A DNA stretch of 64,000 nt from an uncultured Acidobacteriota bacterium (GTDB lineage: Bacteria > Acidobacteriota > Thermoanaerobaculia > UBA5066): assembly GCA_963779415.1 (NCBI GenBank), contig CAVZYA010000003.1:288001-352000 (forward strand), in the 5' to 3' direction. The position numbers were made by a program, and so were the translations under genes. Below, piece by piece: positions 8,851 through 15,609 of this stretch (positions are counted from its first letter, which is position 1; each line of letters starts with the position of its first letter). A model generated the notes under the pieces. It saw nothing but the letters and a program-made list of their open reading frames with translations. It was not told the origin of the DNA and searched no databases.

Positions 8851-9827
8851 CGACCGCACCCATGGCGTCGCGTCCGTTTCCGTCGGACATTCCGACCGCA
8901 AGCGAGATCACGACCGGTCCGGACGGTGCTCTTCGGCTCCATCGGCGACTTCTGGGGCCATGGCGACAGGACCGTCGAGCGCGGGACGTCCTGCTGGCCG
9001 AGATCGAAGCCAACGCCAGAGTCCCGCTGAGCAGCGAGACGCTGGTTCCGCTCGTGGACCAGGGTGACGTTCCCGAACCCTGGCTGGCCCGTCGCTTCTT
9101 CGAGTGCGGCACCCTTGCCCATCGCATCCGACGAACGGACTGGCCGCAGGGCGACGAGCTCCTGACAATCGTCGCCACCCTCCTGAAGGCTTTCGAAGAG
9201 CTGGATCGCCTCGGCCTCACTCATGGCGATCCCGCTCCGTGCAACGTCTTTTTGACCCCGGAGGGGACGGTGCGGCTGGGCGACCTCTGCTCGGCTCGGG
9301 CCAGGTTCGCGGCCGGGCCGGATCACCCGGACCGCTCGAGAGAAGCTCCATCGGATCGCGGACGATTCCTCCGCTGGTTCGCCCGACTCACGGAACGTTG
9401 CGACCAGGACGACCCCCTGGTTCGCCAGGTCGCCGATGCCCTCGCCGGCGGTGCCACGGAGAAAATGAAGCTCCTGCGACTCTCCAGGCTCGCCGAGGAG
9501 CGGTTCTCGGTGGCCGCCCCCGTACGAGGCATCGATCCGAACCGGGCCGCAATCGCCGCGTCAGGACCCGAGTCGGTTGCCGTGTCGCTCGTGATCGGTC
9601 CGGTCCGCGACGAAAAGAGCTCGTATCTCGCGGCCAAGCTTCTGTCCGGCCTCGTGGGCCGACCTCTCGCCGAAGTGCGCGCTCGTCTGCGCGAGGGAAC
9701 GGAAGTCGTCGAATCACTCTATCCCGATCCGGCGAGAGTGCTCGTCGACCAGCTCGTCGTCCTGAACGCGCCCGTCCGGGTCATGCAGGCCGTCCGCGGT
9801 CCGGAGGTCTTAAGATCGCGGCAATGA
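8847..9827 (+). CDS. Degenerate Ser/Thr kinase-like protein with C-terminal bL12-CTD-like domain
   Basis: 'THGDPAPCNVFLTPEGTVRLGDLCSAR' resembles kinase subdomains VIb-VII; GTGA overlap with the upstream gene. Confidence 0.6.
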   Translation: MTTAPMASRPFPSDIPTASEITTGPDGALRLHRRLLGPWRQDRRARDVLLAEIEANARVPLSSETLVPLVDQGDVPEPWLARRFFECGTLAHRIRRTDWPQGDELLTIVATLLKAFEELDRLGLTHGDPAPCNVFLTPEGTVRLGDLCSARARFAAGPDHPDRSREAPSDRGRFLRWFARLTERCDQDDPLVRQVADALAGGATEKMKLLRLSRLAEERFSVAAPVRGIDPNRAAIAASGPESVAVSLVIGPVRDEKSSYLAAKLLSGLVGRPLAEVRARLREGTEVVESLYPDPARVLVDQLVVLNAPVRVMQAVRGPEVLRSRQ

Positions 9828-12326
9828 GCGACTCCCACACCAAAACGAACGGGAACGGCGCGGCGCGCGGGATCCCGAGGCCGATGCCCGGCCACCTCGA
9901 CATCCCGGGGATCATCGAGTCCTTCGCGGAGCGGATGATGTACTCCGTCGCGAAGGACGAGCACACGGCCACCGACGTCGACGTCTACTTCGCCCTCGCG
10001 TACGCCGTCCGGGACCGCCTCATGGAGCGGTGGTTCCTGACGCAGGATACGTACTACCGGACGGACGCCAAGCGGGTCTACTACCTCTCGATGGAGTTCC
10101 TGCCCGGGCGGGTCCTCCTCAACAACATCCTCGCCCTCGGCGCCCATCCCGCCTACGCGCGGGCCGTGGAGAAGCTCGGCTACAACCTCTCCGACATCGA
10201 GGAGAAGGAGGTGGACCCGGCCCTCGGCGGCGGCGGGCTCGGGCGCCTCGCCGCCTGCTTCGTCGAATCGGCGTCCACCCTCGCCCTTCCCTTCTTCGGC
10301 TACGGCATCCGGTACGAGTACGGCATCTTCCGGCAGCGGATCAAGGACGGCTTCCAGGTGGAGGCTCCCGACAACTGGCTCCGCACCGGGAACCCCTGGG
10401 AGATCCCGCGCCCCGACTCCGTGATCCCCGTCAAGTTCTACGGCCGGACGATCACGTACCGCGACGACGCCGGAAAGCCGCGGACCGAGTGGGTCGACAC
10501 CGAGGACGTCTACGCGATGGCGTACGACATGCCCGTGGTCGGGTACCGGAACGACACGGTCAACTCGCTCCGTCTCTGGTCCGCCCGGTCGACGCGGGAG
10601 TTCGACCTCGCGCACCTTCAACGCGGGCGACTACACGCACGCCGTCGAGGACAAGACCCGCACGGAGAACATCTCGAAGGTCCTCTACCCGCCCGACCAC
10701 GAGCTGGCCGGGAAGGAGCTTCGCCTCAAGCAGCAGTTCTTCTTCGTCTCGGCCACCCTGCAGGACCTCCTGCGGCGGTTCAAGAAGCGGGACGACCGGT
10801 CGTGGGACGAGCTCCCCGACAAGGTCGCGATCCAGCTGAACGACACGCATCCCTCCGTCACCATCCCGAGCCTGATGCGGCTCCTCGTGGACGAGGAGCG
10901 GCTCGAGTGGGGCCACGCCTGGGAGATCACGCAGGCCGTCTGCGGATTCACGAACCATACCGTTCTCCCCGAGGCGCTCGAGACGTGGCCGAAGGAGCTG
11001 TTCGGAAAGCTCCTCCCCCGCCATCTCCAGATCGTCGAGGAGATCGACCGCCGCTTCCGCGAGCAGGTGAGGCGGAGCTTCCCGGGGGACGAGGAGAAGG
11101 TCGCGCGGACGGCCATCCTCTCCGATGCGAACGGCGGCGTGGTCCGGATGTCCCATCTGGCGATCGTCGGGAGCCACGCGGTCAACGGCGTCGCCAAGCT
11201 CCACTCCGAGATCCTGAAGCACAAGACGTTTCGTGACTTCCACGAGCTTTTCCCCGGCCGCTTCCAGAACAAGACGAACGGGATCACGCCCCGGCGCTGG
11301 CTCCTGAAGTGCAACCCGGCCCTTTCGGCGCTGATCACCGACGCGATCGGCGAAAAGTGGATCACGGACCTCGACCAGCTCGCCCGGATCCGGCCGCTGG
11401 CCGACGACGCCGCCTTCCGGGAGCGCTGGGCGGCGATCAAGCGCGAGAACAAGGTCCGGTTCGCCGGCCTCTGCGGCAGACATTTCCAGTTCGCCTTCGA
11501 TCCCGACGCGCTGCTCGACGTTCAGGTCAAGCGGATCCACGAGTACAAGCGGCAGGTCCTGAACGCCCTTCACGTCCTCGCCCTCCGGAACCGGATCCAT
11601 GCGGGCCTTCCTGCAGGCCCGCCGAGGACGGTCCTTTTCGGAGGGAAGTCGGCCCCCGGCTACGCGATGGCGAAGCTGATCATCCGGTTCCTGAACGGCG
11701 TGGCGGAGCTGGTCAACGGCGACCCGAAGCTGGAGGGGCGGCTTCGCGCCTTCTTCCTCCCGAACTACGGCGTCGCCTGCGCCGAGCGGATCTTCCCCGC
11801 GACGGACCTCTCCGAGCAGATCTCGACCGCCGGCCTCGAGGCCTCCGGCACCGGGAACATGAAGGCGGCGTTGAACGGCGCCCTGACGATCGGGACGCTG
11901 GACGGAGCGAACATCGAGATCCGGGACTCCGTCGGGCCCGAGAACATCTTCATCTTCGGCCACACGGCCGAGGAGATCGACGCGCTTCGGCGCTCCGGCG
12001 ACGACCCGAAGCGCTGGATCGCCGCGAGCCCGGAGCTCGACAAGGCCCTCGCGGAGCTGCCGCGGATGGAAGGGGGACACCCGGGGCTCTTCCGGCCCCT
12101 CCTCGACGAGCTGCTCGAGCGCGATCGTTTCTTCAACTGCGCCGACTTCGCCTCCTTCGTCGAGACGCAGGAGAGGATCTCCGCCCTCTTCGGCACCGGG
12201 ACGTGGGTCAGAAAGTCGATCCTCAACGTGGCCGGGATGGGCTACTTCTCCTCCGACCGCGCCATCCACGAGTACGCCGAGGAGATCTGGAACGTCAAGC
12301 CCGTGCCGGTCCGGTTCGAGGGGTGA
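9824..12326 (+). CDS. glgP: Glycogen/alpha-glucan phosphorylase (apparent frameshift near 10612)
   Basis: 'YYLSMEFL', 'GLGRLAACF', 'QLNDTHP', 'KRIHEYKRQ', PLP motif 'EASGTGNMK'; frames switch at FDLAH/FNAGDY. Confidence 0.93.
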
Positions 12327-12457
12327 GCGAGGGTGGCGAGAATCTCGTCTGCGTACCGCTGGCGCCCGCCGAGACGCCGCGCTACGGTTGTGGCGGATGC
12401 GATACGACAAGGCTCTCGAACTGGGGCTCAGGAGGCGGCTTCTGAAGTCCCTTCCGA

Positions 12458-12550
12458 GGCCCGAAAGTAGCCACCGGTAGGAACATAGATGCGGCTACCA
12501 GTAGGAACTTCCACGTCAAATGGCCCGAAAGCGGCTACCGGTAGCCACAT
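12458..12550. repeat. Three imperfect ~18-bp repeats (G(T/C)(A/G)GC(C/T)ACC(G/A)GTAG...), one with the palindrome GGCTACCGGTAGCC
   Basis: Copies start at 12467, 12491 and 12531; GGCCCGAAAG starts at 12458 and 12522, running into copies 1 and 3. Confidence 0.6.
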
Positions 12551-12568
12551 GGGGCTGCCGTCTAATAC

Positions 12569-13270
12569 TGGTTAGGCAGCCTGTCATGAAACGGATGGTC
12601 GTTCCTGTCATAGCCGCCGCTGCCGTGTCGCTGTCTGTTCTTGGCCTCGGAGCGACAAGGTCCGGGTTTTCCTTGCCGCCGTGGCTGCGTTCTACAGCCG
12701 AACCGGAGGTCCTCGCTGTTCACCTGTGGAACCTACCGAAGGAGTCCTTTCTATTTTGGATCGAATCGCCCCTCAAAGGCTGCGGAGACCAGGGTGGGCC
12801 CTGCCACTACCGTCTCTACGCAGCCTCCCGGCTTTCCGGGAAGACCCGGCTCATCATGCAGACAGACCCTCTCAAGTCCAAAGTTACACTTAACACCCTA
12901 TCGATTCGCCACGTCTATAGCCCACCGAAGTTCCCCGGGTTTCTGGAAGTACGTGGTGCGTCTGGCGCCGTGGGCGTATCACTCCACTTAATTGAGGCAG
13001 AGTGGTCCGCTCCGCTCGGAACATATAGTTTCAAGGTTGTCTTTGACGACGGAAGGCGGGCGTTCTTCTTCCGACATTCCGATGATGACTTCGTGGACGA
13101 GCTCATCGCTGTAGATCGGTGGGAATGGCAGCCCGGCCACTTCGACGTGAGCATTGGTATTCCAAGCGCGTATGAAGTATTTCGTTATCAGAAGGGCTCA
13201 TTTGTTCGCACAGCTAGCTACACAGTCTGGCCACCCCCACGGCCCCCAGGAAAATAGGGCTGCCTAACCA
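12569..13270 (+). mobile_element. Integron-type gene cassette (solitary; attC interrupted)
   Basis: Core site G|TTAGGC at 12571, 15 nt before the ATG; inverse core GCCTAAC at 13262-13268 just after the stop; 13-bp complementary ends TGGTTAGGCAGCC / GGCTGCCTAACCA; visibly lower GC. Confidence 0.7.
12586..13257 (+). CDS. Hypothetical exported/membrane-anchored protein (cassette ORF, 223 aa)
   Basis: Open frame with N-terminal hydrophobic segment 'MKRMVVPVIAAAAVSLSVLGLGA'; atypical codon usage. Confidence 0.65.
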   Translation: MKRMVVPVIAAAAVSLSVLGLGATRSGFSLPPWLRSTAEPEVLAVHLWNLPKESFLFWIESPLKGCGDQGGPCHYRLYAASRLSGKTRLIMQTDPLKSKVTLNTLSIRHVYSPPKFPGFLEVRGASGAVGVSLHLIEAEWSAPLGTYSFKVVFDDGRRAFFFRHSDDDFVDELIAVDRWEWQPGHFDVSIGIPSAYEVFRYQKGSFVRTASYTVWPPPRPPGK

Positions 13271-13272
13271 CG

Positions 13273-13631
13273 TATCTGGACTCCTCCTGTTGGTCAAGCG
13301 AGGGTGGTGTCTGATCTTCTCCTCTTAAGCAAGGCGACGTTTCGATGCGCGAGGTGCTTGCCGCGTCCGAACGAGCCGGGGGGGATGAGCGGTGGGGTCG
13401 CGACGGCACACGTATCTTCGGCCTCTCGAGGTGGAGCCAGCGTGGGCTCCGGGCCAGGATGAAATCCGCACACGGGGAGCCAATCGTTGGCACAACGGCC
13501 TCTTGGGGCCAGCGGGGTTATCGGCTTTCCCCCGTGTCGGTCGGACCGAGCTCATCTCTCGTTTCTCTTCGCGTTCGTCGGCGGGAAGGCTTTCTTTTAG
13601 ACTCCTTTCGCCGTTCGTCTCTTTAGGCCGG
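13273..13631 (-). mobile_element. Right end of an IS1111-type (IS110 family) element, transposase absent
   Basis: Minus strand: sub-terminal IR GGAGGAGTCCAG, outward -35 TTGACC (13297-13292), motifs GGTCCGACCG, AAGCCGATAAC, GCGGATTTCATCCTGGCCCGG and GAGGCCGAAGATACG; probable transposase stop CCG-GCC-TAA at 13631-13623. Confidence 0.7.
13390..13560 (-). ncRNA. Putative bridge RNA / seekRNA (boundaries approximate)
   Basis: Nested stems carrying short matches to the flanking target (TAACCcCG vs TAACCaCG) and to the element end (AGATACGTG). Confidence 0.6.
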
Positions 13632-13863
13632 GGTGATTGGGGTCAGGTCTCAGTTTTCTATTATAGAAGCCTCGGGGACAGCGGCCACGGGCAGGACGGG
13701 GCGGCCCGAAGAGGGCGGCGACGGCACTCGCCCGGTCCCGGATGACGGTGATTGGGGTCAGGTCTCACTTATCTATTATAGGAGCCTCTGGGACAGCGGC
13801 CACGGGCAGGACGGGGCGGCCCGAAGAGGGCGACGATGGCACCCGCCCGGTCCCGGATGACGG
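13632..13863 (+). repeat. Tandem repeat, 2 x 115 bp, headed by GGGGTCAGGTCTCA (REP/HUH-end-like)
   Basis: Copies start at 13632 and 13747; 7 mismatches counted by eye. Confidence 0.85.
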
Positions 13864-13929
13864 AGATACGGACCGGGGATGATCTAGACTCGCGGCGGAA
13901 GCAGGCCTCGAGGTCGTGAAGGAACTCCG

Positions 13930-14940: not shown

Positions 14941-15609
14941 ATGCCGTTCCCGGCGTCCCTCGTCGCGCTGAGCGCCGCGGCGGCCGTATCGGCCGCCCTC
15001 GCCGTGCGCGGGCACTACGATGGGCCACGCCGGACCCTCGTCTACGTCTTCAAGCCGTTGACGACGATCCTGATCCTCACGATTGCACTTCGGCCGTCGA
15101 GCGGCGCCCCGGGTCGTTACGCCGGCGGCGTCGCGCTCGGGCTCGTCTTTTCCCTCGCCGGCGACGTCTTCCTCATGCTCCCCCGGGACCGTTTCCGCGA
15201 AGGGCTCGCGAGCTTCCTCGCCGCGCACGTCTGTTACATCGTCGCCTTCACGTCGGGGATCGCGCTCTTCACCGGGCCCGCGGCGGCGGCCGCCTTCGGC
15301 GCGCTCGGTCTCGTTCTCCTCCGTCTCCTCTGGCCGGGCATTCCGCGCCGCCTTCGCCTTCCCGTCGTCCTCTACGTCGCGGTGATCCTGACGATGGCGT
15401 TCCAGGCGACGGGCCGCGCCCTGCAGATTCACGACGCGTCGTCGCACCTTGCCGCTACGGGAGCCGCCCTCTTCGTCGTTTCCGACGCTCTTCTCTCATG
15501 GGACCGGTTCCGGGTCCCGTTCCGTTCCTCGCGGGCCGCCGTCCTCTCGACCTATTTCCTCGCCCAGTGGCTGATCGCCCTCTCCGTTCCGGCCGCAGCG
15601 TCGCCCTGA
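14941..15609 (+). CDS. YhhN/lysoplasmalogenase family membrane protein
   Basis: 'FKP', 'SLAGDVFLM', 'GLASFLAAH..Y', 'LFVVSD.LL', 'TYFLAQ'. Confidence 0.88.
   Translation: MPFPASLVALSAAAAVSAALAVRGHYDGPRRTLVYVFKPLTTILILTIALRPSSGAPGRYAGGVALGLVFSLAGDVFLMLPRDRFREGLASFLAAHVCYIVAFTSGIALFTGPAAAAAFGALGLVLLRLLWPGIPRRLRLPVVLYVAVILTMAFQATGRALQIHDASSHLAATGAALFVVSDALLSWDRFRVPFRSSRAAVLSTYFLAQWLIALSVPAAASP

Follow-up and report, generated by a model that had tools for sequence, protein, structure and literature searches.

How a guide-RNA gene of a mobile element comes to stand alone beside an integron recombination site is the question raised by one locus of an uncultured Acidobacteriota bacterium (GCA_963779415.1; Thermoanaerobaculia, UBA5066). 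The 64,000-nucleotide (nt) stretch analyzed here, called the window throughout, covers positions 288,001 to 352,000 of contig CAVZYA010000003.1. A first-pass annotation, made from the letters alone, had proposed that 13269-13631 on its minus strand is the RNA-encoding end of an IS1111-type insertion sequence (IS), stranded in an attC site without its transposase. Our analysis makes it highly probable that an attC-targeting IS1111-family element left its 3' end at 13272-13631 (minus strand), with a complete RNA gene that is now most likely inert. Because just two codons of the transposase gene (tnp) and its stop remain, the locus is a fragment of a member of the IS1111 attC group and not itself a member.

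Results and Discussion

Homologous Elements Carry a Transposase Upstream of the RNA

Copies of the stretch were searched for in the same genome and in relatives. Within the same genome, only the terminal part (13263-13410) recurred, as four further fragments and a 30-nt one, and each right-end fragment elsewhere in the genome stands directly after CTAACC or CTGACC. Across related genomes, the DNA search matched the stretch in 14 of 61, with the window's own genome counted, and near-full-length matches (query positions 3-318 up to 3-363 of 363) were obtained in four other genomes. The stop codon of the transposase gene in full copies aligns with the window TAA; 13631-13272 therefore takes in the entire 3' non-coding region (NCR) and the right end of the element, preceded by the two final codons of tnp and its stop. 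The codons CCG GCC and the TAA stop (13623-13631, minus strand), first proposed as probable last codons, aligned with the C-terminal codons, stop included, of the full-length transposases of L012, L014 and L026 (copies are cited by locus number), and they form the 5' limit of the remnant. Between the stop (13623) and the right end (13272) lies an NCR of about 350 nt that is collinear with the full copies. All the minus-strand features listed in the first-pass annotation were found at their places, and the near-whole-length alignment with copies in other genomes excludes chance as their source.

The enzyme expected of this family was found next to these copies. Both PF01548 and PF02371 were present in 7 of the 10 open reading frames (ORFs) immediately upstream in the RNA sense, and L018, outside these seven, carries a full transposase by tblastn. 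With a covariance model of the RNA core (R1, described below), the core was detected in 23 of 151 genomes of the order. At the 30 loci with an RNA core that were searched by tblastn, a full-length transposase lay upstream in 19, a C-terminal piece only in 6, and none in 3 (the window, L083 and L090). The remaining two loci are cut by a contig end, leaving 28 decidable loci, 19 with a full transposase and 9 with most or all of tnp lost. Homologous copies thus lie 3' of a DEDD/IS110 transposase, as had been predicted. The transposase of a full copy was 48% identical to that of ISPa25 and 46% identical to those of ISKpn4, ISPpu24 and ISPa62, the best named matches among plasmids.

The ends of the elements agree as well. 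Sub-terminal inverted repeats were present at both ends of the full copies L026, L016-L021 and L027. The right repeat of the window, GGAGGAGTCCAG (13276-13287, minus strand), has its mirror TGGACTCCTCC at the left end of L026, L016-L021 and ISPa25. Adjacent to it, TTGACC (13292-13297, minus strand) was seen in the window, with TTGAC or TTGAT in close copies and ISPa25, as the -35-like box of a putative circle-junction promoter. The role of such a box, a junction promoter that arises on circularization of the IS, is taken from the literature on the family, in the available text of PMC12288879. Judged by eye, the full copies L016, L018, L021 and L027 lie inside imperfect palindromes of 58-75 nt with AAC…GTT ends. 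Clusters of the element were also observed: G209:C1:577830-588346 and G265:C1:2198962-2209620 each hold four RNA-core copies within about 11 kb, at intervals of 2-6 kb, a pattern suggestive of IS accumulation in cassette arrays.

Covariation Supports a Two-Loop RNA

Covariation supports the predicted two-loop fold. An alignment of 13 core copies supports an outer stem, a stem-loop 1 whose internal loop is large and whose apical hairpin is small, and a similarly built stem-loop 2. In the window, the seekRNA/bridge-RNA core spans 13392-13553 on the minus strand, identified by its R1 score, alignment pairing and compensatory change, and the conserved blocks GGTCCGACCG, GGGGGAAAGCCGATAAC, GATTGGCTCCCC, GCGGATTTCATCCTGGCCCGGAG and GAGGCCGAAGATACG all fall inside it. 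Over 43 pairs, 94.8% of cells formed standard pairs, compared with 29-46% when the partners were slid by 1-3 columns, and 9 of the 43 pairs showed compensatory change on both sides. In 500 shuffles, the pairing, the number of compensatory pairs and the covariation score never attained the values observed. This shuffle control overstates significance for related sequences, and the slid-partner control is the fairer of the two.

The model R1 was built from these 13 copies, that is, the window copy and 12 from relatives. On the window genome it gave one match, the window copy itself, at 174.4 bits, a score obtained on a row of the training set. A best match of 17.1 bits at the other IS110-family loci of the genome was rejected as spurious, having almost no conserved letters and large insertions. 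Across the phylum sample, R1 matched in 5 of 151 genomes, the window's own and G010 included. R1 also matched the NCRs just 3' of tnp in ISPa25 (74.8 bits, E 2e-15) and ISKpn4 (45.6 bits, E 3.8e-9), both outside the training set; this bore out the expectation that a covariance search would tie the locus to known IS1111 guide RNAs. According to the available text of PMC11187229, the ISKpn4 NCR gives rise to an 82-nt seekRNA that copurifies with its transposase, a similar seekRNA is predicted for ISPa25, and transposition of ISEc11 needs the NCR RNA, supplied in cis or in trans. Rfam at gathering thresholds gave no match in the whole window and only chance-level matches around the locus. Rfam 15 has no model that detects the non-coding regions of ISKpn4, ISPa25 or L026 either, and its blank on the window is therefore uninformative.

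Guide Segments Match Target Flanks and Element Ends

To relate the RNA to its substrates, the four internal-loop strands were tabulated against the flanks and ends of 16 elements. In stem-loop 1 (13471-13536, minus strand), the window carries the 5' guide UAACCCCGC (13520-13512) and the 3' guide UGCCAACGAU (13492-13483). The reverse complement of the loop 1 5' strand matches the right flank of the element: CGATGTTG in L019, L021 and L027, CATGTTA in L017, GGGGTA in L020 and TTGTTA in ISPa25, with the window reading GGGGTTA against GTGGTTA. The loop 1 3' strand repeats, in the same sense, the left flank and the letters with which the left end begins, namely ACGCGAT in L016, CAATGAT in L019 and L021, GGCACYGAT in L020 and TTGAASGCT in ISKpn4. 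The loop 1 guides of the window spell TGCCAACG / GCGGGGTTA, close to an arm …TGCAACGCGGGGTTAG of the same genome.

Stem-loop 2 (13406-13469, minus strand) carries the 5' guide UUUCAUCC (13464-13457) and the 3' guide AGAUACGUG (13417-13409). Its 5' strand, read as the reverse complement, matches the left-end extension: GGATGAA in L026, ATGATGRGA in L021, ATGGAA in ISPa25 and CTGTA in ISKpn4. The window 5' guide matches, in the same way, the left-end extension GATGAA of full copies, and this pairing covaries in ISPa25 and ISKpn4. The loop 2 3' strand equals the right end AGATACG. In the window, this strand, AGATACGTG, equals its own end plus flank, AGATAC|GTG at 13277-13269, at 9 of 9 positions. 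Guides vary together with flanks and ends across the 16 elements, and all four guide segments are intact in the window RNA. Loop 1 is accordingly the predicted reader of the target and loop 2 that of the donor, a layout like that described for seekRNAs and bridge RNAs.

The Element Abuts a Cassette attC Arm

The target half of the locus is an integron gene cassette. A perfect 12-nt inverted repeat, 12570-12581 / 13258-13269, bounds a single ORF, and its 11-mer occurs only there in the 4.36-Mb genome. By its sequence, this arrangement bears the signature of a gene cassette, opening with the R' core (consensus GTTRRRY) and closing with the complementary R'' core (RYYYAAC) of an attC. The 5' boundary GGTTAGGCAGCC (12570-12581, plus strand) is the R' part carried by the cassette, and the R'' arm GGCTGCCTAACC (13258-13269, plus strand) holds the core GCCTAAC at 13262-13268. 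The sole cassette ORF (12586-13257, plus strand) encodes 223 aa from an internal ATG, has a signal-peptide-like N-terminus and belongs to no Pfam family. It occupies a stretch of reduced G+C content (56-59%, compared with 68.5% for the whole window). The cores are the same as those in the attC sites beside the integron integrase of this genome.

That integrase lies at C2:1591940-1592887 (TIGR02249, 468.8 bits against a cutoff of 265), with 8 core motifs in the adjacent 10 kb compared with 0.1 per 5 kb genome-wide. The window is on another contig than the integrase, and its cassette is therefore solitary. In the layout observed at C2:1583000-1592900, intI occupies the minus strand (1591940-1592887) and the attC cores lie at lower coordinates, downstream of the intI 3' end, an arrangement called "inverted integrase".

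Filled and empty sites were compared. The empty attC at C2:1591258-1591337 reads GCCGCCTAAC…GAGTCCGCTGCAAT GAGGTGTTAGGCGGC. In relatives, the insertion point of full IS copies falls exactly between …GTCCGCTGCAA(G/T) and G(A/G)GGGTTAGG, which on the cassette coding strand is a few nt inside R'', with the IS antisense. The arm motif occurs at eight sites genome-wide, five of them beside the integrase, and the attC sites beside the integrase carry the arm into which full copies inserted. In the window, the IS ends 3 nt beyond GCCTAAC (13262-13268), and the cassette ORF is on the opposite strand. Antisense insertion just inside the inverse core, the habit that the first-pass annotation had ascribed to the IS1111-attC group, was also found in the records of ISPa25 and ISKpn4.

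Read on the minus strand, the right end of the window element runs GGAGGAGTCCAG, ATAC, GTG and then GTTAGGC, the reverse complement of GCCTAAC, at 13268-13262. The right-end extension (…GATAC, 13272-13275, minus strand) was delimited from six right-end fragments in the genome, the full copies and the empty attC. By comparison with the latter two, the IS most likely ends in ...CCAGATAC at 13272, with a putative IS/target junction at 13272|13271. Letters common to donor and target leave the exact cut uncertain by 1-3 nt. The earlier proposal correctly set the sub-terminal repeat near the right end; the junction is most likely four nt beyond the repeat and not three, as had been stated. Its placement of the element in an attC site likewise stood in part, in that the R'' arm and the cassette boundary are present and the rest of the site is lost. 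No complete attC remains: the L''/L'/R' part is absent from the window, where the arm motif (up to 2 mismatches) gave 12 matches against 19.3 expected, none near 13.6-14 kb. Neither the GTCCGCTGCAA arm nor the left sub-terminal repeat was found in the window, and the candidates for the latter are chance matches with 2 mismatches.

Two further features of this genome concern its attC sites. A 240-nt segment left of the cassette (12340-12581) is paralogous to G000:C1:689712-689953 and ends in GTCTAATACT(G/A)GTTAGG. Within it lies the 3' portion of an ORF of 119 codons, whose complete form occurs solely on C1. At both loci this segment is followed by a different cassette and then by an R'' core and a right-end fragment of the same IS, and it may be an insertion site for solitary cassettes that was used twice. 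A second, unrelated IS110-family element was observed in the central part of an attC beside the integrase (G000:C2, about 1589170-1590727; L007, L011, L030). Its transposase (C2:1589359-1590369) is 25-32% identical to the first type, its right end adjoins GTCCGCTGCAGCGCGGGGTTAGGC, and a right-end fragment of it also lies near C1:751158. This element appears to target a different place in the same type of attC.

Loss of the Enzyme and of the Left End

Taken together with the full copies, the remnant suggests what its parent was. The parent element would have measured about 1.43-1.49 kb and consisted of a left end with a sub-terminal repeat, a DEDD transposase gene, a 3' NCR of about 350 nt, the right sub-terminal repeat and the right end. 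It would have inserted antisense, a few nt inside the R'' core of a cassette attC. Its 3' NCR would have encoded a two-loop seekRNA, one loop pairing with both strands of the attC arm and the other with the two IS ends, which the transposase would use to join the circularized IS to its target. An unrelated 115-nt tandem repeat has taken the place of the left end, of tnp except for its last two codons and stop, and of the distant half of the attC.

The transposase is missing from the genome as far as it is assembled. A tblastn search at the window locus with a full transposase found nothing beyond the two codons and the stop. With seven full transposases as queries, the genome yielded one cognate remnant and two other IS110-family genes that were 25-32% identical. 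The cognate remnant (C1:690442-690903) covers residues 38-191 (154 residues), with 74% identity to the nearest query; it is cut off on either side and joined to the terminal 92 nt of a right end. The assembly, at 92% completeness, has 3 contigs and no N in the window, and the absence of a cognate enzyme, as first proposed, holds for this assembled sequence.

Loss of the enzyme with retention of the RNA is not peculiar to the window. RNA-keeping remnants are common in this family (9 of the 28 decidable loci). Since the RNA end served as the query, this count says nothing on preferential retention. L065 (G222:C13) and L071 (G248:C291) kept the left end, both sub-terminal repeats, the last 26-96 tnp codons, the seekRNA core and the right end. 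By their sequence, both are candidate miniature inverted-repeat transposable elements (MITEs) carrying their own guide RNA.

Beyond the remnant, the 115-nt tandem repeat (13632-13867, plus strand; 2.1 copies, 93% matches) stands in place of the rest of the IS. We ruled it out as an IS left end, as the left ends of full copies look entirely different. Its units carry a genome-wide motif, GGGGTCAGGTCTCA…TATTATAG, of the form GGGGTCAGGTCTCA-N5-CTATTATAG, and the 11-mer core of this motif has 31 sites in the genome (C1, C2 and C3). Several copies of the motif were observed just upstream of ORFs beginning MSRPLRLEFPGA, which we take to be RAYT or IS200-like. Two IS remnants of the genome have the motif 8-11 nt past their truncation points, and variants lie near two more. 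No support was obtained for the GGGGTCAGGTCT motif as a general mark of IS truncation: of 8 truncated or orphan copies in relatives, 6 lack it, and one more, L090 (G022), has only a one-mismatch variant of it.

Is the Remnant Inert?

We infer that the RNA of the window is not made or not used, and the present role of the remnant is most likely nothing. Lacking a left end, it cannot move, and the assembled genome encodes no enzyme for it to serve. Several observations weigh against so final a view. The window copy contains no stem-breaking substitution, all its guides are intact, and its donor guide fits its own end and flank at every position; with stems and guides intact, nothing in the sequence therefore shows this copy to be dead. 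The single-sequence fold was no better than that of shuffles (z -1.08, with an equally good fold in 21 of 200), so that covariation alone carries the structure. The enzyme gene could be missing from the 92%-complete assembly. The public datasets that hold the locus are two DNA ones (12832-13008 and 13374-13666, at low depth), with no RNA dataset listed, and a simple promoter and terminator scan returned 0 sites, which fits a silent relic without proving one.

An intact RNA invites the explanation that the orphan is kept for work in trans. It would load onto the transposase of an incoming or distant IS110-family element and either steer that enzyme to attC sites of the host or act as a decoy. 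This would account for the intact core and guides, and it is consistent with the support that NCR RNA supplied in trans gives to ISEc11 transposition in the available text of PMC11187229. The second attC-targeting IS110-family element of the genome has an apparently full-length transposase ORF that might serve, and the RNA persists at the 9 loci that lost most or all of tnp. However, identity of the resident IS110-family transposases to the cognate type is only 25-32%, no promoter-like site appeared in the simple scan, retention of the RNA in truncated copies is expected when the query is the RNA end, and one copy gives no sign of selection. We consider this role improbable, and the first-pass suggestion that the RNA may still be usable in trans is unlikely to hold for the window. 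The broader idea that orphan seekRNA genes of the order are kept because they still work, either re-arming incoming transposases of the same group for host attC sites or soaking up such enzymes, appears distinctly unlikely.

The truncation itself might be doubted. Repeats and IS copies are often misassembled in metagenome-built genomes, and the join at 13631/13632 could be an artifact hiding a complete IS. A public contig of 151 nt is identical across 13516-13666 and spans this join, which gives weak support for a real join, as contig and assembly may share a sample and so not be independent. The assembly has few contigs and no N in the window, and no full cognate transposase occurs anywhere in it, which makes an artifact very unlikely. 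A MITE-like, non-autonomous element that a supplied transposase could mobilize has precedent among relatives in L065 and L071, but the window has neither a left end nor a left sub-terminal repeat, and the sequence beyond 13631 is an unrelated tandem repeat; we hold this to be highly improbable. We give almost no credence to an origin outside the IS, whether as a structured RNA in its own right or as protein-coding sequence. Three open frames (91-117 codons) do overlap the stretch on both strands (13218-13493, minus strand; 13345-13626 and 13392-13745, plus strand), but the first two, which were scanned, belong to no Pfam family, the conservation pattern is that of a paired RNA with compensatory changes, and over its full length the stretch lines up with the 3' ends of elements that carry a transposase. 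A 3'-terminal IS remnant with a complete but most likely inert RNA gene accounts best for the locus.

Relation to Known Guide-RNA Elements

The closest described relatives are the members of the IS1111-attC group (ISPa25, ISKpn4 and ISPst6; Siddiquee et al. 2024, PMC11187229), which show the same order of tnp, 3' NCR with seekRNA, GGAGGAGTCCA and TTGAC box. ISPa25 and ISKpn4 share the target and orientation of the window element, antisense to the cassette and next to the GTTAG core, and in the two records inspected they lie antisense between resistance cassettes of class 1 integrons. Their RNA matches the window family in sequence and structure, with guides laid out alike. In contrast, identity between their transposases and those of the full copies is only 46-48%, the attC arm targeted reads GTCCGCTGCAA…GTTAGG, and the hosts are uncultured Acidobacteria-type genomes, not Pseudomonadota plasmids. 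The window copy differs further in having no enzyme, no left end and only half of its target. The kind of element is therefore a known one, the IS1111-attC group with its seekRNA, and the particular lineage is a diverged one, with transposase identities of 46-48% to named members. The first-pass view of a possibly undescribed element is reasonable for the particular IS and not for the kind, which is well known.

Comparison with the bridge RNA of the IS621/IS110 group was by layout. According to Durrant et al. (2024) and Hiraizumi et al. (2024), that system reportedly uses one RNA with target- and donor-binding loops, each loop with a pair of guides that bind opposite strands about a common core. 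IS110-type elements carry the RNA 5' of the recombinase gene and have no sub-terminal repeats, whereas in the window family the RNA is 3', as in IS1111 types.

Another orphan small RNA has been reported. In the available text of PMC12288879, ssr9 / MITEPpu9 of ISPpu9 in Pseudomonas putida is likewise a small-RNA module, usually 3' of an IS110-family transposase and also found alone in the chromosome. According to the same text, Ssr9 is dispensable for transposition, has its own pair of IS-like boxes and can excise, whereas the window RNA is the guide itself and retains one IS end. A brief literature search for orphan seekRNAs or bridge RNAs of IS110 elements found this ISPpu9 paper as the only relevant one.

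Chromosomal Setting

The remnant and its cassette lie between a glycogen phosphorylase gene, ending at 12326, and a YhhN-family gene, starting at 14941. Between these genes the G+C content is 56-63%, compared with 68.5% for the whole window. The glycogen phosphorylase match (9104-12326) was observed to be split over two frames, with the ORF 9104-11236 covering profile positions 2-155 and the ORF 10875-12326 covering positions 235-713, which suggests a frameshift or a sequencing error near 10.63-10.88 kb.

Conclusions

Herein, we describe a relic that ORF-based pipelines miss and that carries a lesson for annotation, since no Rfam 15 model detects even the validated ISKpn4 RNA. The element to which it belonged shows that the attC-targeting IS1111 group and its guide RNA, described so far chiefly in Pseudomonadota resistance integrons, also occur in cassettes on the chromosomes of uncultured Acidobacteria-type bacteria. 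So well is the RNA architecture conserved that a single covariance model covers both Acidobacteria-type and Pseudomonadota elements. The 16 natural elements form a small natural data set of covariation among guide, target and donor that could help to set programming rules. If orphan seekRNAs that soak up such enzymes were to prove real, they would shield integron recombination sites from further insertions.

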